A stretch of DNA of 64,000 nt, from NCBI GenBank assembly GCA_010093815.1, contig ML996569.1; one strand, given 5' to 3'. This document shows, piece by piece, positions 16,755 through 41,992 of the stretch. The first letter of the stretch is position 1, and each line of letters begins with the position of its first letter. The translations under genes and the position numbers were made by a program. The notes under the pieces were generated by a model, which worked only from the letters and a program-made list of their open reading frames with translations, was not told the DNA's origin and ran no database searches. Source of the DNA: Pseudovirgaria hyperparasitica. Its lineage: Eukaryota.

Positions 16755-18071
16755 TCAGACCCAGTTGGTTCTTTCGAGCTCAGGTATGTCTTCCAAAGAC
16801 TGGCATTGTTGTGAATGGTGGAACAAGGGGATATTCGTGCAACTATAACCTTGAGATAATTTCAGGCCTTGTTCTTCCGCCCACGACTGATCTTGGGTCT
16901 GCCCTGCAGCGTAGATAACTGTCGAGTTATGTCCTCTGGCAATATTGATAGAGCTGTTCAGTCGAGCGCGTGACAGTTTCGCAGGAAGCTCATAGTCCTT
17001 TGTGGTATTGGGAGTGAGACGCTCAGATTTCCATCGCCAGGTAGACCGGCTGCCGATTCTCGATACCCAGCTAGACGATCGATCTTGTGTCGTACGAGTG
17101 CGACCTGGCCATCTCAATGCTTTAGGATGTGAGACTGCAACAAAGAAGGTTCGGAATGCGGTCGCTGAGGTCATGAAAAGCCCAATCTGTGCGCATACCA
17201 AAAGCCAGTAGGTCTGCCAGATGATATCAATCATACCTTTTGCTTCCAGTCCACTACCACGTATGATGGTCGCAATTATTACAAATATGAGAAGACATAA
17301 CGATAAGCCTAGTCCCACTTTCTGGGTCCACTTGATTCGAACTTTCCATATCAATTTCACTGGGATAGCGAGTACTTGGGTGAGTTAGCAATGTCTGAGT
17401 TGATGTATTTGCGAGTTTACTTACTAAGGACATCACTGAAGATTTCAAATACGGTGCTACCTATTGATAATGCTGCAACAATCGACTGTCGGGACCCTCC
17501 ACCATTACACGATACTTTCTCAGGTCAAACAATCTTCAATCAGGGGGAACTTCATGTACTTACGCGCTCTGAAGTCTCCGAAGTAAGGGCAAGTATAGTA
17601 GTATTGCGCACCGCCAGCAATAAGAAGCGCAAAACAGAACGATGAAACGCACCACCAATAGATTTTACAAAATCTTAGACGATCGACAAGACGCCGGAAT
17701 AAACAAAGAAAACTGAATTTGACAAACATGACTGATGTCCAAGTCAAGCCCAGCATAATCGCATTCCATCTCTGGAAAGAGAATACGCGCTGGAGAGTGT
17801 TCGGTGGGAGTACAAGCCATGGCTCTCGAAGCAGTAGTGCTTGTGCAAAGTACATGTCGTCAATTAATTTAGCAAACAGTATGACTAGAGAAGCGATTAA
17901 TGTGCTGAGAGATACAAGAATGCAGACATCATCGGCAGCGAATCGCTCGGAGATCAATCGCTTGATGCAGAACCTGACAGCAATGATGATAATATTGAGA
18001 CCAAGAAGGACAGCGTGAGAAATGATGAACGCATGCTTAGGAACCCGTCCAACTGTATCGTAGAGGGACAT
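16755..18071 (-). CDS. PTH11-type (fungal rhodopsin-domain) integral membrane protein, no CFEM domain
   Basis: Hydrophobic helices with family motifs AVRF...FAADDVCI, WTSVMFVKFSFLCLFRRLV, PVKLIWKVRIKWTQKVGL, IIWQTYW. ORFs 17520..18107 and 16755..17360 are joined through introns. Confidence 0.85.
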
Positions 18072-18563
18072 GATGATTTGAAACTCGAATTTGGCTAATG
18101 ATATCACAACGCTTTTGCTCAGATGTGCGACAAGTTAACTTTATATCTGACAGGCTAATAGTGCTTCATTCCAACAATAATTTGTGAACCTCAATGGGTT
18201 TTGAGCCATCGTTACAAATGAGCATTGCTAAAGCGGGCTACTAAGGCTCTACCTATTCCATCACTGCCGCCCGCTGCTACACAAGGGTAACCTTGCAATC
18301 CAAAATGTTGGGTGATCAGCGATTGCAATGGAATCCCTTGCAGCATCATGGCGTAGTGAAAAACTAATATGTGTTTAGCGGCGTCGAGGTGTCGTTTTGT
18401 TCACATTCCCGATGCGACAGCCTTGAGTGTCTTCCAGCTTCCTGCTCAAACCCGTGCCCCTTCATAGGTTCCCTCACTTCAGTCTTTCTAATTTATCTAC
18501 TCCACCGAGCGACAAGAAGTCGTTATCAGATAGAATTCTAGGTGAAATCTTGTTGCAGGTAAG

Positions 18564-21500
18564 ATGACCGAGAAGCTCCAAGAAGACATCGAATTGTATG
18601 CGAGATATCGAGGGAGATTCCACCGCGACGAAGCTTGCCACGTCGGGTTTCGCGATTTGACTGTCAATGGCCGCAATTACAACTCAGACTACCAGCGGAC
18701 TTGTGGCAACTACCCATTTTCTATACTCCAGCAGCTTCTATACCGGAGACCTAGCATTATTCCGATCCTAAGACAGTTTGATGGGCTTATCGAACCAGGA
18801 GAGACTGTACTCGTACTTGGTCGACCGGGAAGCGGTTGCTCTACTTTTCTCAAAACACTGTCCGGTCAACATGACGGTCTCACCATCACGAGTGACAGCA
18901 AAATCAGATACAACGGTACCCATTCCATTTAATGATAAAGTACATTGCTACCGCACTAATGAAGTAAATAGGCCTTGAGAATCAGGAGCGTCACGGAGAA
19001 TTAGTATACCACGCCGAAACCGATCACCATTTCCCGGAACTGACAGTCCATGACACTCTCAAGTATGCTGCTTCCGCGAAGGTCCCCTTATACGATTCGG
19101 CCAATTCCTGTCGGAGCGAAAGATTGCAGTCTGTCACTGACTGTATTCTGAAGTTGTTCAGCCTTGAGAGTAGTGCTCGGACTAGAGTCGGAGATGACCT
19201 GATTCGTGGGGTCAGCGGCGGTGAAAGACAACGCATCAGCATATCAGAAGCATATGTATGCAATGGCAAGGTACACTGCTGGGATCAGAGTACTCGAGGC
19301 CTAGACAGTGCCACAGCTTTGAATATTGTGAAGCTTATCAAGGAGTCTTCCCGCTCATTCGGAACTGTAAGCCTGATGAGCTTATACCAAGCGTCTCAAG
19401 ACATGTACGAGGTATTTGTTACCAACCCAAGAACTGCATTGACTCATATACTTACTTACCAGACATTTGATAAAGTCTGCCTCCTCTACGAAGGAAGACA
19501 GATATACTTTGGGGCAGCCAGTGAGGCCAAGGAATATTTCACTAGCCTTGGATTTGTCTGTGAGGAACGAATGACTACTGCAGACTTTTTGACATCCTTA
19601 ACAAATCCTGAGGAGCACGTAGTCACGGAAGGTTTTCACAAAAAGGTTCCACGCTCGGCTGAAGATTTTGAAGTAATTTGGAAGGCAAGTACAAAAAGGA
19701 AAGAGCTAATTGCTCAGATTGAAAAGATGGTCTCTGTCGAAGTACGCGGTGAAATGGAATCTCAAGATCAAGATGCTCACCTGGTGCAAAAGAAAAGGTA
19801 ATATCCTTATATCGTATATTGAGCTTCAACTCATAACGTTTCAGGCCCAGCTCATACGTCCTGCCCTTCCACTACCAAGTTGCGCTCTGCAACGCGAGGG
19901 CACTTCAGAGGATGAAGAGCAACATGGCAGTGCCGGTTTCAGGCATACTCGCACAAGGCGTGCTTGGAATCCTTACAGGTAGTATGTTCTATAATCTGCA
20001 CTCGGACACGGCAAGTTTTTACAGTCGAGGGGCTCTTGTATTCTTTGCATCGCTACTCAACGCAACCGCGAGTGGATTTGAGGTATTAGAGCTATCTTTT
20101 ATACCACCGCTGCCTGTGATTGACGTGCTCACTCCATGTATAGGTTGGGACTATATGGGCACAGCGCCCTATTGTCGAGAAGCATCATCGCTATGCACTC
20201 TATCATCCTTGTACCGAGGCTATCGCGGCCATGATATGCGATATCCCAGCCAAAATTCTCTCATCCTTACTCCTCAACTTTGCTGTATATTTCATGAGCA
20301 ACCTCCGAAGAACCCCGGGCGCTTTCTTTACATACCTTGTCTTCGCATTTTCTCTCCATCTTACCATGTCGATGTTCTACCGTATGGTGGGCTATCTTTC
20401 ACGCACCTTAGCACATTCTATGGCTCCTGTGTCTGTTTGGATACTTAATTGGATAATATCCACAGGTTTCATTGTTCCTACGCGTGAGATGAGGCCCTGG
20501 GTGCGATGGATCGGATACATCAATCCGATTGCCTATGCGTTCGAAAGCATGATGTTGAATGAAGTAGGTTCGCTTCTTGTGGCCGTAGGAGGGCGCTAAT
20601 CTACGACACAGTTTGACGGCCAGAGGTTTCCATGTACCACTATCATTCCAAAAGGGCCGCCTTATGATAGTATGGAGGAACGAATGATGACGTGCTCTAC
20701 TGTCGGGTCAATTCCCGGAGAGACGTATGTTGAAGGCAATCGTTATGTCTCGGAGAGCTTTGGATTTGAGCGAAGCCACCTCTGGAGGAATTTGGGCATT
20801 CTTTGGGCCTTTTTGATAGTGTTCATGATTGTGTTGATTCTCGGAGCTGAATTTGCATCTGCAGAGAAGCCACGCGGAGACATACTGATATTTAGACGTC
20901 CAAGCAGTTCGAAGAGTCCAATCACCACGGGGCACAAGACCGTGGCGAAAGAGGCACCAGCAAGGCTGAGTGGTATGGCGAATATCCAGAGCCATAATTC
21001 TGTTCTCCACTGGAACGATTTATGCTACGACATCAAGTCTGGGTCTGCCATGAAACGTATCCTAGACCAAGTAGAGGGTTGGGTGAGACCGGGTCAGCTC
21101 ACTGTGCTCATGGGTGCGACAGGAGCTGGTAAGACAACTTTGCTAGACGTGCTGGCCAATCGCACTCGACTTGGAGTCATCTCAGGAAACATAGCCGTTG
21201 ATGGGAGGCCACGTCTACCGGCGTTTCAACGTCAGACTGGCTACGTACAGCAGACAGACATTCATATACCAGAACTGACTGTGAGAGAGTCTCTTATGTT
21301 TAGTGCATCACTTCGACAGCCTGCCGATATCATGGCAGAAGACAAAGCTGCCTATGTCGAGCAGGTGATGGAAACCCTCGAGATGAAGTCTTACGCAGAC
21401 GCCGTAGTTGGTATACCTGGGAATGGTATTGCTCTCTTCATCACGCTTTTATACATACTTACAAAAACCAGGTCTAAACATCGAACAACGCCGACGACTT

Positions 21501-23042
21501 TCAATTGCGACGGAACTGGCGGCGAAGCCAGCTTTGTTGTTATTTCTTGACGAGCCGACATCGGGACTCGACAGCGAGACAGCTTGGCTGATTTGTAGAT
21601 TGCTTCGCAAACTGGCAGATGGGGGTCAAGCTATTCTGTGTACTATCCACCAACCGTCGTCGCACATCTTCAACACATTCGACAGACTCCTGCTTCTTGA
21701 TCGCGGCGGACGGTCTATTTATTTCGGCGATATTGGCCACCACGGAGCTATCATGAAGAACTATTTCACTTCGCATGGTGCTCGTGACTTTACAGAGCAC
21801 GAAAATCCGGCGGAGTGGCTTCTGGAGATGGGTTCGTCCTCAAAATCCGACGACACAATTGATTGGGTCAGTGTCTGGAGGAATTCGCAACAGCGCCGGG
21901 ATGTACAAGAACAGATAACAAAGCTCTCGGAGAGGCAGTCGCCTGCGGTGTCTATATACGACTCGAGCGAATTTGCGGTGCGGTTTCCTACGCAATTATA
22001 TACCGTTCTCCTAAGGGCACTGCAACAGGACTGGCGCGTACCCTCCTATCTATACTCCAAGGTATTACTGAGCTTTGGAATGGTATGTGGTTTCCCTCCA
22101 CGTCCCAACTCAAGACGCTAACAATCTCGAGGCCTTTTCTATAGGAGTGTCATTTTGGGCAGCACCTTCCACCATCCAGGGCACACAAGGACAAGTGTTT
22201 GCCGTCTTCCTCCTCCTGACACTGTTCAGCAATATGATGCAGCTGTTGATATGGCGATTTGCATATAGCCGCGCAATCTTTGAAGCTCGTGAACGGCCAT
22301 CCAAAATTTTCTCATGGAAGACTTTTATGTGCTCAACCATGATTGCAGAGGTGCCATCTCAGACATTCATTGCGGTCGTTGTATATGTTTGTTTCTACTA
22401 CCCAGTAGGCATGTACCGCCACATGGGCTCAGCTGTGCGTGAGAGGAGCGGATTGATGTTTATGCTCATCTGGGCATATCTGATGTTCACGTCGTCTTTT
22501 GCTCACATGATGGCCATCATGATACCCGAGCCGGCGACGGCGATTAACATATCCCAGCTGCTCTACATGCTATGCCTCCTTTTCTGCGGGTAAGCACCTT
22601 GATATTCATCATTTTGGAGTTCGCTGACATTGCTGTCAGTGTTTTGGTACCTTCCAACAGCTTTCCGAGATTCTGGATCTTCATGTATCGGGTCACACCG
22701 ATCACGTACCTGGTCGAAGGTCTGTCAACGACCGGGCTTGGACGGAGAGCGATCGAATGTGCACGACAAGAAGTCCTCGTTCTCCAAGGTCCCACAAATG
22801 TCACTTGTGAGATCTATCTTGGACCTTATGTCTCCGCCAACGGGGGACGCATCTTAAATCCTGACAGCATGGGATCATGCAGATTTTGCCCCGTTGCAGA
22901 TACAGATAGCTTTCTTGGTGTGTTGACCATGTCGTATTCGCGAAGATGGCTTGACCTTGGCTTGATGTTTGTGTACATTGCTTTCAATGTATCGGCAGCA
23001 TTGGGCGTGTACTGGCTTATAAACAGGCGGCAGAGGCGTTAG
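18564..23042 (+). CDS. Full-length PDR-type ABCG transporter (NBD-TMD)2, multi-exon
   Basis: NBD1 GRPGSGCST, VSGGERQRISI, CWDQSTRGLDSATA; NBD2 GATGAGKTTLLD, LNIEQRRRLSIATELAAKP, FLDEPTSGLDS; PDR loops INPIAYAFESMMLNE and FPRFWIFMYRVTPITYLV. Confidence 0.93.
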
Positions 23043-23755: not shown

Positions 23756-26247
23756 ATGGCCATGTCGAAGCTGGTCAGCGCGCTGCACGTTCTCGCACTG
23801 ATAACTGTACCGACGGCCTCCGCGAGTGGAATCATCGGCTTTGGTATCTCATTGTATCAGGACCTTTGCTGCCAATCATGCCACGACTCGCTTTCCAAAC
23901 TGTACCTCAACTGTACAACATTTCCAGAGGGCATGGATGCTGAATCGGCTTCGAGTATGTCCATGGACATGGGAATGGACATGTCTATGATGCCCGAGAC
24001 CAGCGAGGAATGCTACGCGTCGAATACTCCTTGGCTGCAAACTATGGCATACTGCATCCAGAAGAACTGCAATGCCGATGGATATCCCACCTCTAAGCAA
24101 GCAGAGTGTTTCAGCAAGCAAGCACTTGGCGGCGCAACAGAGCCGACCTTCCAGGACAGCTTGCCATCATCTGCCCCTACGGAAGAACTGGCGGCTGATG
24201 CGCTCTGGCTCAACTCGACCAGCCTTGTCAACGGAGACACATACTACTCGACCCATGGTACTCTGGGCGAATTCGCCAGATCGGAGTATATCCACACGCG
24301 ATACTCGTAGGTTTTGGATGCTATGCCTATCTGACGGAGACTAACTCGTTTGCAGTTTAATACTTTATCTGATTGTCATTGGCTTCATCCTAGCCTGTGG
24401 TCTCTTCGTCCAGACACAGCGAATTCTACCTGGATTTCAAAAACAGCTGCAGACGTCTACGCTATGGGCCAAATGTCAGCAAGCGGTCTTCCTACCCGCT
24501 CTGTTCAGAAGTCGACGCCTTGAACCTTTGCCAGCCAATGCTGGGTATGTTCCTGGTAGGGCTTTGACCATCTCAATTGCTGTATATGTCATCATCAACA
24601 TCATACTGTGCTCTGTGTCCTATCGCAGCTTTCAACCGAACATATATTTCCTGTCGAAAGGCTTCGAACTGTGCGAATACGTAGGAAACCGCACTGGAAC
24701 CATCAGCATAGTCAACATGAGTATAGCCATCTTGTTTGCGGGGCGCAACAACATTCTCATGACAATTACTGGCTGGAGTCAAACCACTTTCATGACTCTA
24801 CACCGCTGGACAGCACGCGTGGCCACGTTGCAAGCCGTTGTCCACTCCATTGTCTACACAATGGCTTACTGGGAGCAAGGGTACGAAGGCGCCTCTGCAT
24901 ACGCTGCAAAGGCTGCAGAGCCATTCTACGTAAGTTCAAACACAAGGCGTTCTGCAGAGTGATTCTAACATTATATGATAGTATTGGGGAATCATCGCGA
25001 CCATTGCAATGTGCTTGATCCTCCCATTCGCCCTCCTGGCATTCCGCATCAAGTTCTACGAGACATTCCTAGTTATCCACATTGCCCTGGTCATCCTCAC
25101 ATTAGCTGCAACATGGTACCACATTGTTCCCCACTTTGGTTACGTATATGGCTACCAGACCTGGCTGTACCTCTGCTTCGCTTTTTGGGTCTTCGACCGA
25201 GTGGCCAGAGTTGCGCGCGTTGGCTTCTACAGCCATCTTGGCAGCTCCAAGGCCATCGTTGAACGGGTCCCGGGATGCGACGTCATGCATGTCACGGTGT
25301 ATCCTCGCACTACCATAGGTTTCGGTGTTGGGCAACACACCTTTCTGTACTTTCCCTATATTGGCGTAGGGAAGTTCTGGGAAAGCCATCCTTTCAGTGT
25401 AGTTAGCTGGGGAAGGCAGCGACGATTGCAACCAAGTAATTCTAGCTCGGCGTCCTCCTCGGCGGAGAAGAGAACTGCCGACGACGAGATCAACGTTGTT
25501 GGTGCGAAGCATGGCTTGAGCACACATTCGCGAGCCATTACCAAGGACTCGTCCTCACCGCTCTTAGGCGAGATGGATGAACGGCCTTCGATATCATTCA
25601 TGATGCGGGCCCACACTGGCTTCACAAGAACCTTACTTCGAGATCTCTTCACCTCTGACACTCGGCCTGCAGAAATTGCAGTCTATACGGAAGGACCATA
25701 TGGGGGACACGGTGCGACCCTGCAGCCGCTCGTCAACGCGGACACCGTCATCTGTCTCGTTGGCGGTATTGGTATCACCAACATTCTCGGTTTGGTTCAG
25801 GAGTACACCAGCGGAAAGTTCACCGGTGGTGAGAGTCAGAGTAAGACACGGGGTCTGATGAAGAAAGCTAAGAGACTAGTGCTTCTCTGGTCTGCAAGGG
25901 AGATGGCCTTGATCGACTTCGTAAAGGATAGGTTCCTTTCATTCGACGTGGAGGTTGAAGGAATCGAGTGCGCGTTCTGGTGCACAGGAAACTCCAAGAA
26001 CACTGAGCAGGACTCGGATACTGAAAGCCAGAAGGCAAGCGGAGTCAAGACAGGACAATCCGCTGTCGCAACGAGAGGACGAATGATGATGGGAACGGAG
26101 CTAAGGTCTCACTTGGAAAAAGGCCAGCAGACAACTATTGTCGTATGCGGACCTAGCCAGATGACGGACGAAGCCACCAGAGAAGTGGTCGGCTGTATCA
26201 AGGAGGGTTATAGAGTGGACCTTGTTGAGGAGGCTTTCAGCTGGTAA
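23756..26247 (+). CDS. Ferric/cupric reductase (FRE family) with signal peptide and Cys-rich, Met-rich extracellular N-terminus (3 exons)
   Basis: Signal peptide; GIIGFGISLYQDLCCQSC; MSMDMGMDMSMMP; heme-ligand His in LHRWTAR...VVHS and YETFLVIHIAL...WYH; FAD motif WESHPFS; EGPYG; NADPH motif GGIGIT; C-terminal VCGP...EEAFSW. Confidence 0.93.
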
Positions 26248-26538
26248 TTGGCATATGAGCGTCTTGATATCCAACCATTCGATTCCATACCGCCTAGTTC
26301 AAATCCTTCCGAGCTGATGTACAAGCTGGATTACTGTGTCCTGCGAGCCAAGATAAGCAGAACCGTGATGTCCAGCACCGTTGATGTCCCAGCGCTCCAA
26401 GGTAATAATAGCACAATGCTATATACACTAGCACCACCGCCGTTCACCTTAAATAGCCCGTTTCCGCAAGCCACGTGCTACATATGCGTGGGGACCTTGT
26501 CCGCTAACCAGGATCGACTGCTACACCACGTTTCTGCT

Positions 26539-26557
26539 ACTTGCTCGAACATGCTCA
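26539..26557 (+). promoter_or_regulatory. Tandem TGCTCR (CuRE-like) element upstream of the opine dehydrogenase
   Basis: ACTTGCTCGAACATGCTCA; 15/19 identical to the 23412-23430 element, with the same 10-bp spacing. Confidence 0.5.
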
Positions 26558-26738
26558 TCTCCAGACGATGATCCCTCTCCGCTCGGCCGACCAACACGAA
26601 CACACTTGTTTTCTTGCCAGGATGCTGCAGATATATATGCAGAAGCAAACCCAAACAGACGATCTTCGCATACAAGCATATTCTCAACGACATAGCACCG
26701 TCTTACACATACATAGTCCTCGTTAGAACGACGCTATA

Positions 26739-27906
26739 ATGCTTCAACCGAGAGTTGCCATTGTCGGCGCAGGACCTGCTGGATATGGTATGTGACGCTC
26801 CTTGTTTCACCCAACATAAAATTGCTAAACATACCACAGCCCTCGCCGCGGACCTTCACGCCCATCACAACTCAGTCCTCATCTACTCACATCCCTCGCA
26901 CACCTCCCACACCGACGCCGTCATACGCAAAGGCGTCCTCCGCTCCAATGGTCTCATCGTCTCCGCCATCACTCCTCGCACGACGACCGACATGGCCGAC
27001 GTCGTGGCCTTCGCAAAGACCGTCGTCATCACAGTGCCGAGTACAGGCCAGGAAACCGTGTGGGAGGAACTACGCAGATTCGACCTGAGTGCGCACACCA
27101 TCGTCGCAGTACCAGGCAATCTGTTCGGCCTAGTAGTGCAGAGAGAACTGCGCGACGTCAAAGTCAGAGCCATCCTCGAGACAAATCTCTCCCCATACTC
27201 CTGTCGCATGAGCGAGGGCGCCCTCGTCGTCCTCGGCAAGAAAAGCAGCTTCCACATCGCCCGCCTCGACGATCCCCCTTCCCTCACAAACCCAATCCAC
27301 CACCCCCCAGACGATGACGCCGACGTGCGACTCCGCCTCACAGCCCTATTCCCCCTGCACCTGCACTGGTGCGCCAACATCGTCGAAGTCTGCCTCTCCA
27401 ACATCAACGGCGTCTTCCACCCGCTGATGGTGCTGCTGAACGCCGGCCGCATCGAGTCCACCTCCGGCGCCTTCTTCTTCTACCGCGACGGCCTCACACG
27501 CTCCGTCGCCAACGCCCTCGTCGCCGTCGACACCTGCCGCATCGCCGTCGGTGCAGCGCTCGGCATGTCTCTGCCCAGCGTCATCCAGGTCAGCAACGAG
27601 TGCTACGGACACACCTTCACCGACCTCGTGCAGCTGGCGCGTGAGAGCGAGCCGCATCGCGACTTGCGTGCGCCGCAGGGCGTCGAGAGTAGGAATATTG
27701 CTGAGGATGTGGGCGATTTGCTGGTTGCGTGGTATGCGCTTGCGCGGGTGCTGGGGGTGGAGTGTGCGCCGTTGTATGCGGTTATTGTGATGGCTGGTAT
27801 GTGTACTGGGGTGGATTATCTGGTTGAGGGTAGGGGGCTGGCGAGGTTGGGACTCGAGGGCGTGGGGAGGGAGGAGTTGATTGCGCGGTTTGGGGTGAGG
27901 CGGTGA
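26739..27906 (+). CDS. NAD(P)-dependent opine dehydrogenase (octopine/nopaline dehydrogenase family), 2 exons
   Basis: Exon 1 MLQPRVAIVGAGPAGY (Rossmann GxGxxG); intron 26788-26839; ETNLSPYSCR; C-domain SNINGVFHP (catalytic His), LLNAGRIE, FFFYRDG, AVD..R.AVG.ALG, RNIAEDV (catalytic Asp), GRGLARLGL. Confidence 0.88.
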
Positions 27907-28042
27907 TGGATGGAGGGTTGTTTAGGGAGCGGGTTGCATATGTACATACATACATTCATACATACATGTATATTCATAATCGTGTACACACCAGCTATAC
28001 ACACTAATTAGCTATACCACACCACACCACGCCCCTCCCCTC

Positions 28043-28849
28043 CTACTCCCCCTTCACCGCAACAACAACCAACAACTCCATCCCCATCCGAATCCACCCA
28101 TCCGCCTCCCTCTCCGCCTCCCACTCCACCCTCATCTCCTCCCTACACCTCTCCCTCAACTCCCCAGGCGGCACCCCACCATACGTCTGCCCCGAACTAC
28201 TCGTATCCAACCACTCCACCATCTCCCCGGGGCCCTCCCTCTCCACCACAATCCGATTAACCCACATCTCCCTCCCACCCGTAAACCCGCCCCCATCCAA
28301 CAACCCATTCATCTCCCCGCGCGTCAGAAAATGCGGGCCCCCAACCTCCTCAAACGCCGCATACGGCGCACGCGCAAGAACCCGCGCCTTGATCCGCTCA
28401 TGCGCAGCCTCGAAGTCGCCGCTTCCGCCGCTGACGCCCAGCCGCCCGCCCGGCTTCAGGACGCGGGCGAACTCGCGGATCGCGCGCGCCTGGTCGGCGA
28501 CCCAGTGGAGGGTGCTGTTGACGAAGACGATGTCGAAGGCGGCGTCGGGGAAGCGGGAGAGGTCTTCTGCGATGCCGACGTGGAAGGTTAGGAGGGGGTT
28601 GTGGGCGTGGGTTTGGGTGGCGAGGGCGATGCGGTCGGTGGAGGGGTCGATGCCGGTGACGTGGGCGGGCGGGCTGGTGAGGGTGGAGATGTGGGCGGCG
28701 AGGTTGCCTGGGCCGCAGCCGATGTCGAGGACGGTGGCGGCGGGCGGGATGGGCAGGTGGGAGAGGAGGAAGAGGGCGGCGTTGAACTGGGTGGTGTTGC
28801 GGGTTGTGTAGCCGGATGCGAGGGCTGGGGTGTCGTTGCGGGTTGTCAT
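28043..28849 (-). CDS. Class I SAM-dependent methyltransferase-fold enzyme (intronless)
   Basis: Motif I VLDIGCGPG; VTGIDPS; AEDL; FDIVFVNSTLHWV; RVLKPGGRL. 268 aa. Confidence 0.92.
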   Translation of the reverse strand: MTTRNDTPALASGYTTRNTTQFNAALFLLSHLPIPPAATVLDIGCGPGNLAAHISTLTSPPAHVTGIDPSTDRIALATQTHAHNPLLTFHVGIAEDLSRFPDAAFDIVFVNSTLHWVADQARAIREFARVLKPGGRLGVSGGSGDFEAAHERIKARVLARAPYAAFEEVGGPHFLTRGEMNGLLDGGGFTGGREMWVNRIVVEREGPGEMVEWLDTSSSGQTYGGVPPGELRERCREEMRVEWEAEREADGWIRMGMELLVVVAVKGE

Positions 28850-29050
28850 TTTTTTTGGGTTTGTCGGGGGGTTTTGTGTGTGCTGGGGGGAGGTGGATGT
28901 ATATGATTGTGTCGGGGGGATGGAAAATTGGGAAGTGAAATGTGTTTGTTTTGAAGGTGAGGAGAAATGTTGTACATGGGATGGACTGGAGCACGTGGGT
29001 ATTAGAGAGCTTTTGGCATGAGTGAGAATGTTTCAAGGGTATCGGTCAGA

Positions 29051-29069
29051 GGAGTAAGTTTGAGCAGGT
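29051..29069 (-). promoter_or_regulatory. Degenerate third copy of the tandem TGCTC element, upstream of the methyltransferase
   Basis: Minus strand reads ACCTGCTCAAACTTACTCC (14/19 identical to the 26539 element), about 200 bp upstream of the ATG at 28849. Confidence 0.4.
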
Positions 29070-29456
29070 TGTGTGACACACAAGGTCAGTTTAAGGGCGG
29101 GGGGTGGAGTGGGGCGTGTACCGTGGGCGCAAGGCGTCCGGACTGAGGTGGTGCTCAGGGGAGTGTAGTCCGACAATGGCTTGTTTGTTATGTTTTCCAG
29201 TGTATTATTTTCCCATGCCCCAACGTTGGATTTTCTTTCTCGTGCTTCCTATTGGCCAATTGTCTATTTACATGACTTCTGCAGATGTATGCGGCCAGGG
29301 GGAGCAGCCCGGGATGCGTGCATAGGCCCTTGCAGCCATCTCGGCCGAAAACGGAATCCCGGTTGTAATATGCTTATCCGGGATCGGCGAATGCTTATAT
29401 CTCCGACACGTCCCTGACATCGCATTTTCTTCGCTATATTGATTAGGTGACAAAGC

Positions 29457-31102
29457 ATGTATACAGATGCCCTCCTTCAGTCTCCAGCAGCAGTGCTCGG
29501 CATAACATCAGTGGCGCTTGTAAGAGCGTCTTCGTCTGCCTTATGCAGTGCTAACGGCGGCAGCTGATCGGATACATCCTTACGCAAGCGATACAACGTC
29601 GATTCTTCCACCCGTTCAGTCATGTACCAGGCCCGTGGCTCAATAGCATTTCAGAAATACCAGCTGCATTCCACCTCGTCAACGGAGAGCAGCATCTTTA
29701 CTATCGGTCTCTGCACGAGAAATATGGCCCTGTGGTTCGCGTCTCGCCTGACGAGCTGAGTTTTGTCAGCGTAGAGGCGCGGGACGAGATATATGGCCAC
29801 CGAGTATGACCATGTTCCATCGTCATACCAAGTCATGCACACTGACCTCTAATACAGAAGGCAGGTCTAATGGAGAAGAGTCCCATCTTTCTTGGCGCGG
29901 TGGGACAAGTCAACGGAGAGACCGGTGTGAGTCTTGCACTGAACGCAGAACACACCAGACAGCGTCGGGCAATAGGGTACATCTTCACAAACAGCGCCCT
30001 ACTCCAGCACGAGAGCATAGTACGGCGCCATATACACAAATGGATCAATGTACTGCGTGATGCGGCTAATGGAGCCCGCCCCCTCGACTTCTCTGACTGG
30101 TACACATACCTCGCCTTCGACATCATGGGCGACCTCTGCTTCGCCGAGCCCTTTGGCTGCCTCGACCAAGCCTCCGCAACATCCTGGTCCACATCCGTCA
30201 TCAAGGTCTTCGTCGCAGCAACCTGGACCCAAGCCATCCGCCGCATCACGGGCGTCGGCACCACGCTCGAGACAATCCTCACAAAGCTCCTCATCCCTCG
30301 CAGAGCAGCCGAATGGCGGCTCACGCACCTCGCAAACTCCAAGGAGAAAACCCTGCGTCGTCTCGCCGACCCAGACCGCGACCATCCGGACTTCACATAC
30401 CAAATCCTGCACAGCGAGTCGAAGAAAAGCCTCTCGCACACCGAAGTAATCCTTAACATGGGCCTTTTCATCAGCGCGGGCACAGACACCACGGCGACGG
30501 CATTGGCCGGCTGGACGTATTTCGTATGCACACATCCAGACGTGTACGCGCGCTTGACGGGTGAGATCAGAAGCGCGCTCGCCGATGAAACGGCGATCAT
30601 ATGGACGAATGTGCGCCATCTGCGCTATCTCGAAGCCACCATCAAAGAGGCACTCCGGCTATTCCCTCCCTCGGGCGCGAGTCAGCAGCGGATTGTGCCG
30701 GTAGGCGGAGCGGTGATCGACGGCTACCACATCCCCGCGGGGAAGACAGTCGCCGTATCGCCCTGGGCATCGACTCGTTCCTCTCTCAATTTCCACGAGC
30801 CAGACGCTTTTATGCCGGAGAGGTGGCTGGGCACACACGAGAGGTTTGCCAATGACCGACTTGCTGCGTCGGTGCCGTTTGGGAACGGGCCGAGGGTCTG
30901 CGTGGGCAAGAATTTGGCGTACATGGAGATGCAGCTTGTGGTGGCGCACCTGTTGTGGAATTTTGATATTGAGCTTGATAGGGGACTGTTTGTGGATCGG
31001 AATCGTGTCTGGGGGTTGGATGGCGTGTTGAAGCCGCCCAAGGTGTTTCATTCTACGATGAAGCCTGAGTTGTGGGTGGCTTTGAAGGATATACGGCGCT
31101 GA
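29457..31102 (+). CDS. Cytochrome P450, CYP65/Tri11-like type (3 exons)
   Basis: FFHPFSHVPGP; LHEKYGPVVRVSPDELSF; FDIMGDLCFAEPFGCL; I-helix AGTDTT; EALR; FMPERW; heme motif PFGNGPRVCVG. Confidence 0.93.
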
Positions 31103-31305
31103 GTAGTTATCTTACCCATGAGTTGCGTCAAGTCTTCTCGAGCTAGCATCGTCGTGTTGTGAAACAGCTCGTACATAGGTACAGCTGGACATAGCTTCAG
31201 TAAGCCGAGTACATGCACCCGCTTTAACGGCATAAAATGAACATCCTAGGGGTGCGGTCACCTGCTAACGGGCTAGCATATGCCCGATGCAAAGACTTTC
31301 ATAAT

Positions 31306-33687
31306 TCAGTTGAGATAGCCCAGCGTGTCATCCTCGAGCAGCCCCATCATATACTGGTTTCCATTCCACCAGTCGCCAATACTGTTGTTCATCACGACGT
31401 TGCTGTCTACACTTGGGCCTCCTGCGAACCCCATGGTGTTCAAGTATGGATTTAGTGCGCTCCACGCTTGAGAACTAATGTTTACGGCCTGGTCTGGGGC
31501 CGATGATGGCGTGTTGGACTGGGAGTGACCCTCGACATATAGATTGGCGACTTGGTGTAAGGTTGAGCACAGTGCATGCATCTTTCGTGATCCTTCCGTA
31601 GTCTGGCCCATCGCAAGTGTTTGAACAAACTTCTCCATGCGCTGGAGGTCACCTGCATCTTGGGTGCTGAGAACATTCCCGAATAGGACGATGAAGGGCA
31701 CGAAGGGGGCTTGAAGGATGGTCCTGTGGCAAATGGATTTAGCTCATGCAAGAGTGATATCCGATCATTGAACATACCAGTGGATGTAAAGGGACCAGGA
31801 GTCTTCTCCAATGTCAACATAACTGTCAGCAGCCTTCTGGTGGAGTGCGAGTGCAGCTCTGGCATAGCCTAAGCAATCCGGACTCAGACCAGCATCACTG
31901 GAGCTTCGAGCAATCATGCAGCACACCACATTGACTACTACCTCGTCAGAGATACAAAGAAGCTTCACCGCACGTATGCCTGCAATTGTGTCGGGCAGGT
32001 TCAGACTCTCGTGGTGCTGATACAGCTGTGGAATCTTAGATTTAGCTCATCAATTTTGTCAGCGGAACTCACTTGAGGGATTTCCTCCCGTACTGTCTCA
32101 ATCTCATGCAGGAGTAACTTCGCATGGTTCTTTTGTACCTCTCTGCTTTGTTTGAGCGCAGCAGGACTGTACAATTGCTCGTATACCCGGCCTTGAACAC
32201 GGGCAGTACGAATCCATAAGCATACAACTTTGGTACTGTATTGAGCCACAGGCGAGCTGCCATAGTCTGGCAGGTCGACATCAATGTCATAATCCTGCAG
32301 AATCGCTGCTCTCCCAAACCGTAGCGAGATCGACCTGTCCATGACATAGATGTACCAGAAGATCTGTGCTTTGCGTCGCCTCTGCTGGTCAGTGTCATCT
32401 TCGGACATTCTATGCCAGCCCATTGAGAGCGCAGCACTAGCTGCGGCCGCTGTCAACTTCCAACTCATGGTCGGTCTACAGGTCTCGATGGCGTAACATG
32501 CTCCGAAGAGAAGAGCCGATATGAGATTCTCGTTTCCGGGAGACAGTACCTCGAGGTTGGACAGCGCGATCTCCAAGTTGTCTTTGCACAGAGAACTCTG
32601 TGGCCCCCGCTCAATATCGTAGCCCAGCCTCCCCCCAGAAGAGTCGCATCCGAGCCAGTAGAGATGACCGAAAACCAGTATTGCTGTTGACGTGGGATAG
32701 TTATCGAGGCAGAAAAAGACATCCTTACACAGTTCTGTAAGCTGGTCGATATCCAAGACGGCGAAGGGATCCAAGAAAGTAAGAGTCGGGGATACTAAAG
32801 TCGGACATGTCAGGCAGGTATCAGAAGCTTGTATGATGGCATAATTGTACTTTTGGCTTGCCGTAGTAGATTCAACACCACATCCGTCGGTGGCAATTTT
32901 AGTCGCCGATAGTCAAATCGAGAGTCGCCCCCTAGTCTCGCAGGTGGAACTGTACCCGGTGTGGGCTCATGACGGCTTGAGAGTTGTCGCAGATGTGCCA
33001 AGGCTGAAGACATGGCTGGGCTACTTGCAGCAAAGGGATCTTCTTGAACTGCTTTCTCGAGCAGGTCACGAGCATATGCAGAGTGAGCACGCATCGATGT
33101 TTCGCCTTCATAGGCCTGTCTCTCTTCTTTGGTGAGGTCATCAGCTGACAAAGGGGATGCATACGCGGCTCGGGATACGGCACGCGGAGACGTCTTGGGT
33201 ACTTGTGTCAAAGAAGAAGATGAAGATGGTGCAGGGTATCTGGTGTTCTCGCCAGAGTGGAAGACATGATCGAGGTCTGCTAGCCTCTCCTGGATGAAAT
33301 CGATTTTTCTCTCACTGCGCCTATCAGTCAACCCTGCTTGAGACACACAGGAGTCACCACCAACTATTCTTCAGTTACATGGAGTCGTTTTCGGGGAGCT
33401 TTGGGCTCGGGATTACTGGTTTTACATGGGATGTTCGACGCTTTACATGACGAACATGGTGATGCTTTGTCGCAGCGTACCTGAGTAGTTATATGGTTAA
33501 TGATGACTCCTCGCTTCACGAGGAGACGCCCACCTTTCTTGCTCTGCAGGCATTGCACTATAGCTGATATGTCAGCATATATGTGTCACCATGGTAGCAC
33601 AGGCATGAAGCCAAAAACACTTACCGCTCGTTTGAAAAATGGCGACGGGCTTGTAGCGACCCGATTGCCCGCGTCTTGTGCTGGCAT
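31306..33687 (-). CDS. Zn(II)2Cys6 transcription factor with fungal-specific middle homology region (multi-exon)
   Basis: Spliced N-terminus KRA|CNACRARK|VRCDKASPCSSCKASNIPC; middle region MGWHR...RRRKAQIFWYIYVMDRSISLRFGRAAILQDYDID. Confidence 0.9.
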
Positions 33688-34395
33688 GGAGAGCGTTCAG
33701 AGCAGAAACTAGAGCAAGGTGAAATGAAAATGATTGGGAATTGATTATCCCGGTATTGAAATTTGCTGGAGGCTGAAGAGGAGTAGGCGAATCCATTGCT
33801 CTAAGAGATTTCGGAGTCCTCGGGATCCGTGGAACCCTGATGACTCAGCAGTTACGCCTCCTTCTTCCATATGGCCAGAGCATTAGTTTACAAAGACACT
33901 GCAGTCTCGAATCATGATATTACGGCCATCTAGGGTTTACTTACAGGACGGTTGAGCCGGAGATGGTGCGAGATGGAGATGATAATGGTTCCTGCAGCAC
34001 ATACGGAAGGAGTGAACGCCAAGGAAATGTAGGACGTCATGGCTCCGAATCGAAACAACCTCCTTTGACGCTCAATATGTTGTTCTCGGTGTCCACGGCC
34101 GCCGTTCAATCTGTATTTCTAAGTCCTCCTCGATGTATGATGTAGGTGCTTGTGTCGTAAGTCCAGCCAGGCCGATCTTGTCAGCGACCTCTTTGGCCCG
34201 TCTGGAAGGGCTGCTGCTTTGAAGCATAAGGTCGCGCACCATGGCTATAAGATCTACTCTGAAGACCCATAACCCAGCGCCTCTCCGTTCTGTACGCAGG
34301 AACATTCAACTTCTATCTCTACCCTCGACAATTTCACCTGTCTTTCTGGGTATATTGTCATCAATCGAAAGCACGCGGGATTGAGAGCAGCAAAC

Positions 34396-37300
34396 ATGGT
34401 TTCGACTGAGAAGTCATCGAGTGTAGCTCGAAGCTCGTCGGATATATCCGAGATATCGTCCGATGATGGAGCTGCGGGTTTCAAATCTTACCTAGTGAGT
34501 AACATCGTGATGTATTGTCCACTGTTCAGCTGTTTACATAGATATCAGCGCGTTTTTTCCTACGCAGATGGATTCAGCTGGTTCTTGAACGTACTAGGCA
34601 CCTTTGCTGCCATAGGTTCAGGCAGTGTTCTACCTTTGATGGACCTCATCTTTGGCAAAACTGTCACAACATTCAACGATTTCGGCATAGGTGCAATCAG
34701 CCCTGCAGAGTTTCGATCGAGGTCCGTCGACTGGACACTCTACTTCATCTACCTCTTCATTGCCAAGTTTGTCCTTACCTATGTCTGGAGCCTCTGTTTC
34801 AACCTTGCGGCCCTTCGAACAACCAAAGCACTCCGCATCCACTTCCTCCAGCAAACTCTACGGCAAGACATTGCATTCTTCGACGAGGAAGGCAATGGCT
34901 CCATTTCAATTCAGGTCACAACCAACGGCAATCTCATCAATACTGGTATATCAGAGAAAGTTGGTCTCATCATCCAGGGGGTCGCCACCTTCGTCGCTGC
35001 TTTTGTTATCGCCTTCGTTGTGGATGCAACCTTGACCGGCATCACGTTGGCTGTTGTACCCACTATTGTCATATCAATGGTCGTCGGCGTCATAGTCGAG
35101 ACGATCCAGGAAGGGCGAATCCTAGCGTTCTACTCCTCCGCCGGCCAAGTGGCCGAGGAGATTGTAGCAAGTATGCGAACCGTTCATGCATTTTGGGCAC
35201 ACCCAGCACTTGGTGGGAGATACAATTCGCTGCTAGACAGCGCCAGAAAAGAAGGAATGAAGAAGTCTCTGAATATCGCCTGTTACTACTGCGTCGAATT
35301 CTTCTGCATATACGCAGGCTATGGACTCGCCTTTTGGCAAGGGATCAGGCGCTACGCTCGTGGAGAGACGTCACAACCAGGCAGCATAGTAACGTATGTT
35401 CAGTCCTCTCAGACCTCCCAAGACATTTCTGACGGCCAACAGTGTCATTTTTGCAGTAATACTAGCGGCAACGGCCATAACCCAAGTTGCTCCCCAGCTG
35501 ATGCATCTTTCCAAAGCGGCTTCTGCGGCGGGTGCGTTGTTCAAAGTCATCGACCGAAAGCCATCCATAGATGCATTATCCAATTCAGGTAAAAGACCAG
35601 CAAAATGTGACGGTACAATTGATATCAAAGGGCTTAAATTTGCCTATCCCAGCCGCCCTAATGTTCACGTTCTCCAGGGGATGGACCTCACGCTACCTGC
35701 TGGGAAGACTACTGCATTAGTTGGAGCAAGTGGTTCGGGAAAAAGCACTATCATTGGATTGATCGAGCGATGGTATAATCCAATCGAAGGGTCAATAAGT
35801 CTTGATGGGTGTCGCATCGAAGAGCTGGACATTGAGTGGCTTCGCACAAACATCAGGCTTGTACAACAAGTACGTCTCCGGACAGACCATGCGTCCAAGT
35901 CTTTGACTAACAGGCTGCAGGAACCTGTATTGTTCAATGTGACGATTTTCGAGAACGTGTGCTATGGGTTGGTTGGTACTGAATGGTATAAAGCCTCTGA
36001 GGAAAAGCAGATGGAGCTTGTCCAGAGTGCCTGCAAAGCCGCATTCGCTCATGACTTTATTGAAACGCTCCCAGAGGTAGTCCCCCGCAAGAACTTCTCG
36101 AAATCTCCCCACTGACCCTTTCAGGGATACCATACCCATGTTGGCGAGAGGGCTGGTAGACTCTCTGGTGGACAGAAGCAACGCATAGCCATCGCTAGAA
36201 GCATCATATCCAATCCAACCGTGCTACTACTGGATGAGGCTACTTCTGCGCTCGATCCGAAGGCGGAATCGGTCGTACAGGACGCACTTGACAACGTGTC
36301 CGCTCAAAGAACCACCTTGATCATTGCCCATAAGCTCTCCACAGTCCGAAAGGCAGACAATATTGCTGTGATGTCTGCGGGAGTGATCATCGAACAAGGC
36401 ACGCATGACCAGCTTTTGGAGATCCCTGATGGCGCATATGCTCGTCTGGTCAAAGCACAAGACCTCGGCAAAAAACATGACGGTGGACTCATTACTGATG
36501 ACGAAGAAATCCGCCGCGGCGAAGAGAACATGCAGCTGCTCCGAACCAAGACTACAGAAGTCCAAGTCGAAAGTTTTTCCGATGATCCGTCAACGCCGAA
36601 AAGGAGTATGGGGTATGGACTGCTAAAATGCATTTACTTAATCATCAAGCAGCAGAGATCTTTGTGGCTGTTATTCTTCCTCGTTCTTATTGATGGTACA
36701 CTCGGTGGTAAGCACAAGCCATCTTCGTAAGGCAGATCGTACCTGATGTGTACTTTAGGTCTCGCGTACCCGGCGCTAGCCATACTGTTTGCTAGGAGCA
36801 TAACTGCTTTCACTTTACCGCCAGATGAAATGGTCGACCAGGGCGACTTTTACGCACTGATGTTCTTCATTGTCGCCATAGTAATTCTGCTGGCTTACTT
36901 CAGCATGGGTTGGTGGACAAATCAAATTTCCCAGGTGAGTAATCCGGATTCCGCTGCAAGAAGTTGTTCTTAACGATCGTTGAAAGATTCTCACATACAA
37001 TTATCGTTCACAAATGTTTCATGATACAATCAGACAGGACATGAGTTTCTTTGACAAGCCAGAAAACACCGTGGGTGCAATCGTGTCACGGCTGTCAAGC
37101 CAACCAACACATGTTCAAGAGCTGCTCTCCATGAATGTCGGGATTATCATAGTGGCTATGGTCAATGTTGTATCCAGTAGCATCCTTGCCATAGCTATCG
37201 CTTGGAGACTTGGACTCGTCGTTGTGTTCGGTGCGCTCCCCGCACTTTGTTTCTTTGGCTACCTTCGGATTCGACTGGAGTTCGCCCTTGACGATGCAAT

Positions 37301-38498
37301 CACACAACGGTTTGCAGACAGTGCTGCTTTGGCTGCTGAGTCTGTATCTGCTATCCGAACTGTGGCATCACTTGCCCTCGAGCGCACAATTCTGGACAGA
37401 TACCGAGATAGCCTTGCTTCTATCGAGCAGCGCTCCGCAAAATTCCTGCTCTGGACCATGTTCTGGTTCTCCTTATCTCAGGCAGTCAATCTTCTCGCCA
37501 TGGCACTAGGCTTCTGGTATGGATCCAGACTTATCTCCTTCGGGGAATATGACCTCCAGCAGTTCTATATTGCATTCCTCTCTGTGCTCTTCTCAGGCGA
37601 AGCAGCAGCACAATTCTTCTCATACTCCACCAGTATTACAAAGGCCGTTACCTCGGCCAACTATATCTTCTGGCTCAACGCCCAGGTTCCAAATGTCCGC
37701 GAAATAGGTCCTAACTACGGGCCAACAGACTCCGATACCACCGATGAGTGCAGAGGCGCATCCATCCAGGCTCAAGATATCCAATTTGCATACCCCGAAC
37801 GTCCCAACATCCCCGTACTCCGGGGCGTCTCTGCAACTGCAAGACCCTCTCAATCAATTGCTTTCGTTGGCCCCTCGGGCTGTGGCAAGACGACCATGAT
37901 CGCCCTTCTCGAACGCTTCTACGACCCTGCCTCCGGCCGCTTCCTCTTCAACAAGCAGGACATCAGCACACTATGTCCGCGTGCATACCGCACTAACATC
38001 GCGCTCGTACAGCAAGAGCCCACATTGTACGGCATGTCGATCGCGGACAACATAGCACTCGGCAGCCATGGCACCGCAACAGAGGTTGAAATCGAAGACG
38101 CGTGTCGCAAGGCGAATATCTACGACTTCGCGGCCTCACTTCCGGACGGACTGCGTACGTTGTGTGGAAAGAGTGGCACGCAGCTGTCTGGCGGACAGAG
38201 ACAGCGTATTGCGATCGCGCGAGCGTTGATACGTAAGCCGAAGCTGTTGTTGCTGGACGAGGCGACAAGTGCGCTTGACACGGAGAGCGAAAAGATTGTC
38301 CAGGATGCGTTGGAGAAGGGCAGTGAAGGCTGTACCAAGGTCGCGGTTGCGCATCGTTTGAGTACGGTCAAGGGGTGTGACTGTATATTTGTGTTTGCCA
38401 AGGGCAAGGTTGTTGAAAGGGGAACACATGAGGAGCTGATTCGGCGGAGGGGGGTTTATTTTGAAATGTGTCTTGGGCAGGGGCTTGATTCGGCGTAG
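34396..38498 (+). CDS. Full-length MDR-type ABCB transporter (TMD-NBD)2, multi-exon
   Basis: [12 protein letters not shown]1 [36 protein letters not shown]2 [30 protein letters not shown]. Divergent from the Zn2Cys6 gene. Confidence 0.95.
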
Positions 38499-40566: not shown

Positions 40567-41992
40567 ATTAGACAGAACTGCCTTGTTTGACTCTCAGAGC
40601 ACTTGAAGTTCTTGGTTCAAGGAGAAATATCGATTCTTGCTTATATACTGGCTAACAAAGGCCGTTTCCAGCAGGTAAACTCGTTTAATCCCACGTGATG
40701 CGGATCCTGCAGGTAAGGATCACTGGCGTCTTAGTATTGCTCGGCGTATCGTAATCTTTGGGTACTTGAGGTCCTCCCGTAATACATACTGATGGTACGA
40801 ATAGAGTCCCATGTAAGTGACGTCTGAGGCTGACCTACCTGTTCTAAGGTCGTCCATGTCGAGAAAGGGGCTGGAGGCATTGAATCGCACATATACTGGA
40901 GATGTAAGATTAGATCACGCACGAGACCACCGGGGAATTCGCTTTGCAGAAATGACTCCACATGTATCATGGTTGGGAAGCGATGAATATCTCGAAGGCG
41001 ATGATGGAGTGTGAAGCGTTGCTTCACGAATGACATGTAAAGGGGGTTCGCTGTGCGCTAGGCCGAAAACACCGAGTTTGCCATGCAGGGATTTATGTTT
41101 GCCATGGATTGTAGATGTGTACACTACATAACACGCTTCACCGTATCTTTGAATTTCTCCTTGCTCATCCTTACTTCCGTCAGTCTGCCAACGCGGAGGC
41201 TCTCGGTGAGGACTGAGTCATTCGAAACCGTTATGGCACCCGTGCTTGGACGTGGCTGATAAGGCGGATCGAGCATTAGCATGTCAGGCATTGTGATATC
41301 GGATGAACCTCGTGGATATATGTTGCAATTACTTACTCCTGCCGTTCCACATATATGGTTAATCACAGGTTGCTCCAAATACGAGCAGATTTTGAAGAGA
41401 CCGATTTTCGCTTCAGTGACAATCTGTACGATAATAGCTTTCACAGCGCTACCAACGTCGAGTGAATGATAACAGCGAGCACATCATTCTGGTTAGAGGA
41501 TGTGAGATCGATATAATTGATAGTTTTGCTTCGTTCATGGCGCAACGTTAATAGTCCACAACGAGAGAAGGTCGTGATAGGGGAAGAAGGAAAGACAAGG
41601 GTTCTAAACATAAGGCGGTGGTCAGTTCTGTACATTGAATAGCATAGTTGAGTCAAAATCAAACATGGAGCTCAGGGTGGCTTGGAATCAACGATCAAGA
41701 GTGATGTGTGAATCAGGGGAGTCGTTGGACCCTGGAGTATCGTGACGGGATTGGTGCCTGAGGCAACCAAAACGTGGGGATGCGAGGGGCAGCTCTGAAA
41801 ATGGCCGACCGGAGTTTGACTCACGATCTTGACTCACGAAACAGCCGAAGTTGTCAGACTCACTTACCGTGCACGCGACCTGCGCATTCCCTGGGCACAC
41901 GACAGAGAAATATATAATCTTCGTTCCTTCAATTCACCCTATTCCAGTCCATATCTCACATCTCCGTTCCAGCCTCTGAGCTTCATCGCGCC

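Follow-up and report, generated by a model that had tools for sequence, protein, structure and literature searches.

A four-gene metalloreductase, opine dehydrogenase, methyltransferase and P450 module in Pseudovirgaria hyperparasitica and its possible role in copper acquisition

Described clusters and the locus in Pseudovirgaria hyperparasitica

Clusters in which the gene for an opine dehydrogenase is found together with those for a metalloreductase, an S-adenosylmethionine (SAM)-dependent enzyme and a cytochrome P450 (P450) have been described in two fungi, and a set of the same kind occupies positions 23756-31102 of the DNA considered here, a stretch of 64,000 nucleotides from contig ML996569.1 of the Pseudovirgaria hyperparasitica assembly GCA_010093815.1 (the window, to which all coordinates refer). 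The host is a mycoparasite and a Dothideomycete of the order Acrospermales.

In Pseudogymnoascus destructans, the genes VC83_01834-01838 encode a metalloreductase, a major facilitator superfamily (MFS) transporter, an opine dehydrogenase, a SAM enzyme and a P450 (PMC12113139, PMC13208438). They form the Cu-responsive cluster (CRC), which is upregulated when copper is withheld and downregulated in copper overload (PMC12113139); in the proteome under copper withholding, the dehydrogenase increases 20-fold and the SAM enzyme more than 70-fold, the latter being among the most abundant proteins (PMC13208438). In Trichoderma harzianum, the plant communication associated (PCA) cluster (pca1-7) comprises genes for a reductase, a Ctr copper transporter, a Tri101-like acyltransferase, an opine dehydrogenase, an MFS transporter, a class I methyltransferase and a P450; proximity of a plant raises its expression by as much as 1000-fold, and deletion of either pca1 (the reductase) or pca5 (the MFS transporter) abolishes root colonisation (PMC12855858). 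According to the cblaster analysis of the same paper, the commonest PCA core is formed by the dehydrogenase, the MFS transporter and the methyltransferase, and many fungi keep only these three (PMC12855858). An opine metallophore is proposed by both groups, with no compound presented (PMC12113139, PMC13208438, PMC12855858). Pseudovirgaria, Pseudogymnoascus and the Dothideomycetes are not named in one supplement of PMC12855858, the cblaster and clinker tables lying outside that supplement. Thus, the statement of the first-pass annotation of the window that no characterised fungal cluster of this composition is known has to be amended, since two had already been described with the same hypothesis, but it still holds chemically, because neither published cluster has a product.

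The locus in P. hyperparasitica consists of four intact, close-packed genes, with intergenic spacers of 491, 136 and 607 bp: (i) an FRE-type NAD(P)H metalloreductase (23756-26247, plus strand; three exons, recognised from Pfam matches and translation); (ii) a dehydrogenase of the Octopine_DH family (26739-27906, plus strand, 371 residues; exon 1 at 26739-26787, intron at 26788-26839 and exon 2 at 26840-27906), which resembles the N-(1-D-carboxyethyl)-L-norvaline dehydrogenase (CENDH) of Arthrobacter; (iii) a class I SAM-dependent methyltransferase (28046-28849, minus strand, 268 residues; single exon, stop codon at 28043-28045); and (iv) a P450 (29457-31102, plus strand, 515 residues; exons at 29457-29519, 29564-29803 and 29858-31102). 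The P450 is transcribed divergently from the methyltransferase, and the sequence between them (28850-29456) would serve as a promoter region common to both.

Judging from gene content and similarity, this module is very probably the same as that of the CRC and PCA clusters. The locus is read here as the P. hyperparasitica copy of a module of FRE reductase, CENDH-like dehydrogenase, methyltransferase and P450 that recurs in Pezizomycotina, and whose product would aid the acquisition of copper, an overall reading for which belief and doubt are, in our judgement, evenly balanced.

Much of the first-pass annotation was borne out. It had described four tightly packed genes, all of which are found where it placed them, namely a Met-rich FRE reductase (three Pfam domains and the Met-rich stretch are present), an opine dehydrogenase with intact GxGxxG and His/Asp residues (GAGPAG, H210 and D306 are kept, and R301 too), a SAM-binding enzyme with an ordinary motif I that may simply methylate (LDIGCGPG, with matches to methyltransferase families only) and a P450 (p450 family, intact motifs). 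Its further claim that the window holds no canonical backbone enzyme agrees with a Pfam scan of 89 of the 123 stop-to-stop open reading frames (ORFs) of at least 110 residues, those omitted being overlapping alternative frames: no polyketide synthase, non-ribosomal peptide synthetase (PKS, NRPS), terpene cyclase or prenyltransferase/DMATS domain was found in the 89 ORFs. A 425-residue ORF (6648-7922, minus strand) was considered as a hidden core enzyme and set aside; it has no Pfam or Atlas match and lies 16 kb off the module.

Recurrence of the module in fungi

Sixteen homologues of the dehydrogenase were aligned, and scanning of metagenome contigs with the alignment yielded 23 loci; six near-duplicates (at least 97% nucleotide identity) were merged to leave 17 distinct loci, the contents of which were established by tblastn with the window proteins and by Pfam searches of the gaps. 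The methyltransferase gene is found beside that of the dehydrogenase in 14 of the 17 and, the other three contigs ending within approximately 1 kb, in all 14 that can be assessed. The reductase gene lies upstream of the dehydrogenase gene in 12 (two loci are not assessable, hence 12/15), and is absent from L008, L011 and L012 despite at least 9 kb of upstream DNA. The P450 gene is present in seven (six not assessable, hence 7/11), and is absent from L008, L009, L019 and L023 despite at least 4 kb of DNA beyond the methyltransferase. Orthologues are 42-73% identical per exon for the reductase at the related loci, and 65-74% identical for the P450, those of Pseudogymnoascus, Trichoderma and Metarhizium being included.

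At these loci the order and orientation are those of the window (reductase, dehydrogenase, reversed methyltransferase, P450), with the four-gene arrangement at L001, L005, L006 and L013 and a partial one in others. The outer flanks are unrelated among loci and contain, e.g. BEACH, phytochrome, GH18, asparaginase, HET or ankyrin genes. In nine named species of Leotiomycetes and Sordariomycetes, moreover, two module genes are joined by locus tags that are 1-3 apart (e.g. Oculimacula 6514/6516, Phialocephala PAC_17075/17077 and Diaporthe eres 9882/9883). Recurrence in 17 loci in the same order and orientation, with differing flanks, identifies the four genes as a conserved unit and not as chance neighbours. 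That genes of unrelated functions would have come to lie side by side by accident is, indeed, scarcely credible, being contradicted by this recurrence and by named genomes belonging to three classes, as well as by the co-regulation reported in P. destructans (PMC12113139, PMC13208438). The search for co-localised homologues in other fungi, which had been suggested as a check on the first-pass annotation, was thereby carried out, with modules found co-located across the 17 distinct loci and the named genomes.

Two layouts of the module can be distinguished. An MFS gene is inserted between the dehydrogenase and methyltransferase genes in 13 of the 16 distinct loci that can be assessed for it, whereas L003, L005 and L006, along with the window, are without it. 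A Ctr copper transporter gene is present in two of the 17 distinct loci (L003 and L006), just past the P450 gene; these are two of the three MFS-less loci. With its four genes, no MFS and no Ctr, the window copy is the smallest form of the module seen here.

The enzymes and their likely product

The dehydrogenase has one intron of 52 bp; its spliced length is that of the 371-residue NCBI protein P0001 of P. hyperparasitica, to which its long exon is 100% identical. It matches Octopine_DH with an E-value of 1.5e-40 (139 bits against a cut-off of 30; Pfam). The GAGPAG sequence of the Rossmann domain (GxGxxG), encoded in exon 1, is invariant in 16/16 aligned homologues, and so are H210, R301 and D306, whose aligned counterparts in CENDH (1BG6) are likewise His, Arg and Asp; the catalytic roles of these residues and their CENDH numbering are assumed here. 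In a single-sequence search, CENDH was the only solved relative (E 1.5e-23), and no match of the CntM class was found at E 0.001 or better. The family-profile search gave a full-length match to CENDH (E 6.2e-39), a partial one to scallop octopine dehydrogenase (E 1e-4) and, for yersinopine dehydrogenase, an E-value of 0.08 over residues 6-100, i.e. the Rossmann end alone. In the Foldseek search with the predicted structure (pLDDT 82.6), 1BG6 was again the best match (TM 0.77/0.82, 25% identity), and the CntM enzymes came next, below CENDH, with TM approximately 0.6 and 10-15% identity. By both sequence and modelled fold, the enzyme is nearest to Arthrobacter CENDH and not of the CntM class. 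None of 601 pattern matches in prokaryote genome contigs encodes a relative. The fungal 'tryptopine' opine synthases belong to a different family, PF18631 (PMC12536604), and are not relevant. A 12-residue Pro/His-rich insertion (PPSLTNPIHHPP) is found at approximately residues 160-180 (27230-27300); it is missing in most of the 16 aligned homologues and is of low confidence in the model.

Opine dehydrogenases are reversible, and the module might be seen as catabolic, namely as a system for the uptake and breakdown of an environmental or host opine-like compound, or of an N-methylated amine, in which the dehydrogenase would work in the oxidative direction and the MFS transporter, where found, could import the substrate. 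Fungal growth on crown-gall opines is, in fact, cited in PMC12855858. A SAM methyltransferase has, however, no obvious catabolic role, the copper-dependent regulation and the linkage to reductase and Ctr genes would be left unexplained, and the ranking of the SAM enzyme among the most abundant P. destructans proteins when copper is withheld (PMC13208438) is at odds with such a function, which is considered improbable.

The SAM enzyme matches Methyltransf_11 (E 4.8e-25; Pfam) and carries the motif I LDIGCGPG. All of the 13 Pfam families that match it at E 0.01 or better are methyltransferase families, and NAS (PF03059) is not among them; for none of the three enzymes does an NCBIfam family reach its cut-off. 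In a PDB profile search, phosphoethanolamine N-methyltransferase heads the 60 matches listed, all of them methyltransferases or proteins of that fold. The predicted structure (pLDDT 93.3) gave Z 18.4-22.7 to the 50 entries listed, nearly all of them methyltransferases, the best full-length matches among those listed being 3CCF (a putative methyltransferase), trans-aconitate methyltransferase (Tam, 2P35; Z 22.0, 2.7 Å, 237 aligned) and juvenile hormone acid methyltransferase (JHAMT, 7EC0; Z 21.8, 2.8 Å, 239 aligned), with 18-20% identity to the latter two. From these comparisons of sequence and model, the protein looks like a genuine methyltransferase whose nearest structural counterparts are Tam and JHAMT, both carboxyl methyltransferases, although other methyltransferases lie within one Z unit and are, therefore, tied with them, which makes the assignment only a lead. 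No NAS/CntL entry was found among the matches listed in the fold searches, by which similarity to it is not excluded. The fold neighbours include MccD (Z 19.4), an enzyme of methyltransferase fold taken here to transfer an aminocarboxypropyl group, so that the fold alone is no bar to CntL-like chemistry. The best named match of the methyltransferase is P0122 (61% identity), annotated as encoded on a contig of 17.7 kb from the chytrid Rhizophlyctis rosea; every other named match is from Pezizomycotina, and contamination or gene transfer could account for P0122.

These properties of the two enzymes bear on a full staphylopine-like pathway, in which the SAM enzyme would be CntL-like and transfer aminobutyrate, the dehydrogenase would be CntM-like, and the ABC transporter and Zn2Cys6 factor genes that flank the module would belong to the cluster. 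The fold common to the dehydrogenase and the CntM enzymes (TM ~0.6) and the presence of MccD at Z 19.4 among the neighbours of the methyltransferase are compatible with it, and a SAM enzyme as highly abundant as that of P. destructans (PMC13208438) would be in keeping with slow catalysis of scaffold formation. It is opposed by the lack of any CntM match at E 0.001 or better and by a profile score of 0.08 that concerns the N-terminus only, by NAS not figuring among the Pfam matches of the methyltransferase at E 0.01 or better, by the methyltransferase or methyltransferase-fold nature of the 60 PDB profile matches listed, and by the absence of relatives of the ABCG, ABCB and factor genes at the 23 related loci; such a pathway is accordingly rated quite unlikely. 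Of the scaffold model of the first-pass annotation, the dehydrogenase-centred, metal-linked pathway remains as the leading reading, whereas the CntL/CntM parallel (the dehydrogenase matches CENDH, and yersinopine dehydrogenase only at E 0.08, while NAS is not among the 13 Pfam matches) and the inclusion of the ABC transporters and the regulator are not supported.

The P450 (p450, E 7.4e-65; Pfam) has the FGNGPRVCVG, AGTDTT and EALR motifs, and its three exons sum to 515 residues, the length of P0241. In the reductase, the three exon ORFs match Ferric_reduct (E 7.6e-18), FAD_binding_8 (E 4.3e-10) and NAD_binding_6 (E 1.3e-6), and the translation contains a signal-like N-terminus, a Met-rich stretch (SMSMDMGMDMSMM), two His-x13-His pairs, and the HPFS, GPYG and CGP motifs; the latter are presumably the FAD and NADPH motifs, and the meaning of the His pairs is likewise assumed. 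The Met-rich stretch is found at the same place in seven of the nine distinct loci whose reductase first exon aligned there, and has been lost in the reductases of L019 and L020, the most divergent pair. The Met-rich reductase and the Ctr genes, as far as their sequences tell, point to copper uptake.

In the copper-acquisition pathway favoured here, the dehydrogenase would reductively join an amino acid and a 2-oxo acid to give an N-(carboxyalkyl) amino acid, which the methyltransferase would methylate, more likely at a carboxyl group than at the amine in view of its nearest structural relatives, and which the P450 would then oxidise. The product would be released and help the cell to obtain copper under scarcity, and uptake would be preceded by reduction of Cu(II), whether free or bound to the ligand, by the Met-rich reductase at the cell surface. 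Such a pathway would be no copy of the bacterial cnt one, since no nicotianamine-synthase-like step is evident. Synthesis of a modified opine by the module is reasonably probable, while the proposal that this product serves copper acquisition falls just short of an even call.

Several points weigh against this reading. The dehydrogenase is, as said, CENDH-like and not of the CntM class. Absence of the P450 from 4/11 and of the reductase from 3/15 assessable loci leaves only the dehydrogenase and the methyltransferase as constant members. The window contains no orthologue of the MFS (at E <1e-5) or Ctr genes, and no paper naming the product of any copy of the module was found in literature searches. 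Furthermore, a ligand made with no enzyme to add aminobutyrate would offer few donor atoms, and carboxyl methylation would weaken chelation further. Finally, the Mac1-type copper response element (CuRE), the consensus of which we take to be TTTGCKCR, i.e. TTTGC(T/G)C(A/G), is found in none of the module promoters of the window, which as a whole has seven matches against 8.85 expected; the motifs give, therefore, no support to copper regulation of this copy. In the spacer between the methyltransferase and P450 genes, a CuRE is present in three of the seven distinct loci that have both genes (L006, L010/L011 and L012). The published PCA motif YGHGSAADHTTSCDCR, allowed up to two mismatches, had six matches in the window, none convincing, against 10.25 expected, and a search for k-mers common to five promoter regions of the window returned two 8-mers in three regions, which is about the chance level by estimate.

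The same evidence can be accommodated if a modified opine is made under copper starvation without being an extracellular copper carrier; the product might then be a metabolite inside the cell, an ionophore able to cross membranes or a signal. The resemblance of the methyltransferase to Tam and JHAMT fits this explanation, an esterified opine being a poorer chelator, as do the absence of an MFS gene from 3/16 assessable loci and from the window, and the discovery of the T. harzianum cluster as a plant-induced one, needed for colonisation, for which a plant-communication compound was proposed (PMC12855858). Most copies of the module do hold an MFS gene, though, and the indications of copper uptake given by the Met-rich reductase and the Ctr genes, together with the copper regulation reported in P. 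destructans (PMC12113139, PMC13208438), speak for a carrier; a non-carrier product is deemed unlikely, albeit to be taken seriously.

Bolder versions of the copper-acquisition reading can be formulated. Tentatively, and with more doubt than confidence, the module may make the first eukaryotic opine-type copper carrier, a CENDH-like iminodiacid tailored by a Tam-like methyltransferase and a P450, with no NAS step and with a Met-rich surface reductase that unloads the copper. Very much less likely, the P450 might N-hydroxylate the secondary amine to yield an N-hydroxy-iminodiacid of the amavadin kind; that of amavadin presumably binds vanadium, and no paper on amavadin biosynthesis was found in a literature search.

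To our knowledge, opine metallophores are known only from bacteria, and we know of no fungal small-molecule copper carriers apart from isocyanides. If the copper-acquisition reading is true, the module would provide a short pathway to eukaryotic metallophores of a new class. It is widespread in Pezizomycotina and, as reported in the papers cited, is under copper regulation in a bat pathogen and is required by a biocontrol fungus for colonising roots. The gene set and the opine-metallophore idea are already in print for two fungi, in neither case with a compound. The window adds a copy from a Dothideomycete mycoparasite in the smallest form seen here, and the present analysis contributes counts of the constant genes, the dehydrogenase and the methyltransferase being always together and the reductase and P450 frequent but dispensable, as well as evidence that the bacterial staphylopine pathway serves poorly as a template for the chemistry.

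Flanking genes and comparison with known systems

The flanks named in the first-pass annotation are present according to Pfam, with the Zn2Cys6 motif only partial. Directly upstream of the module lies an ABCG/PDR transporter gene (18546-23039, plus strand; ABC_tran, ABC2_membrane and PDR_CDR); downstream are the gene for a Fungal_trans factor (31309-33370, minus strand; E 1.1e-14) with a partial Zn2Cys6 motif in the stretch CDKASPCSSCKASNIPC, and an ABCB transporter gene (34273-38495, plus strand; ABC_membrane and ABC_tran, twice each). By tblastn, no relatives of these three genes are found at any of the 23 related loci; hence they are not shown to be members of the module, and the transporters and the regulator, judged by this comparison, are probably bystanders. 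At L006, the gene for an unrelated Fungal_trans factor is found 5 kb beyond the P450.

Upstream of the ABCG gene, and all on the minus strand, are two more P450 genes (10808-12216 and 13898-15266) and that of a Fung_rhodopsin membrane protein (16758-18134); they have no homologue near the related loci, and together with the ABCG transporter gene they may make up a group of their own. Past the ABCB gene, a carboxylesterase gene (38956-40593, minus strand) and a methionyl-tRNA synthetase gene (41918-43989, plus strand) are found; a carboxylesterase of 38% identity is encoded at L008, approximately 6 kb from the module, a recurrence that is probably due to chance. Across the dehydrogenase, methyltransferase and P450 genes (26001-32000) the G+C content reaches 0.55-0.58, compared with 0.46-0.51 in the upstream 18 kb and 0.49-0.50 downstream. 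An assembly gap of 87 consecutive N is located at 60445-60531.

With respect to known systems, the bacterial cnt loci (CntL plus CntM, for staphylopine, pseudopaline and yersinopine) likewise combine an enzyme of the opine dehydrogenase superfamily and a SAM-using enzyme beside metal-uptake genes, and are likewise induced by metal limitation. In the fungal module, however, the dehydrogenase is not CntM-type, no NAS/CntL match is obtained with Pfam, the metal link is to copper instead of zinc or nickel, and where the bacterial loci have an ABC importer there are a P450 and a surface reductase; from the sequence and model comparisons, the staphylopine analogy appears weak, and a poor guide to the chemistry. 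Among solved relatives of the dehydrogenase, CENDH of Arthrobacter sp. 1C (1BG6) is the closest, at 25% identity, but this bacterial enzyme stands alone and is not known to be linked to metals. Tam (2P35) and JHAMT (7EC0), which resemble the methyltransferase of the window in fold, both methylate carboxyl groups of small acids.

The PCA cluster of T. harzianum and the window have in common the reductase (PCA1), the opine dehydrogenase (PCA4), the class I methyltransferase (PCA6) and the P450 (PCA7), with no PKS/NRPS core, but the former adds Ctr, Tri101-like acyltransferase and MFS genes, none of which is found in the window, and is described as plant-induced and not as copper-regulated. The palindrome YGHGSAADHTTSCDCR of the PCA cluster, called uncharacterised in PMC12855858, fits an inverted pair of Mac1 CuREs of the consensus assumed above, and in T. 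harzianum another reductase gene and another Ctr gene, both located outside the cluster, are induced along with it (PMC12855858). Taken together, the fit of this motif and the co-induced genes suggest that copper starvation accounts for part of the 'plant recognition' response of T. harzianum.

The CRC of P. destructans differs from the window in its MFS gene (VC83_01835), for which the window has no counterpart, and in that its copper regulation has been shown, the window copy being known from sequence alone; reductase, opine dehydrogenase, SAM enzyme and P450 genes lie side by side in both. The P450 of the window is 68-70% identical to Pseudogymnoascus proteins and 65-67% identical to those of Trichoderma and Metarhizium (relatives from the same genera and not the VC83 protein or PCA7 themselves), and identity of 65-70% to the proteins of these three genera fits orthology.

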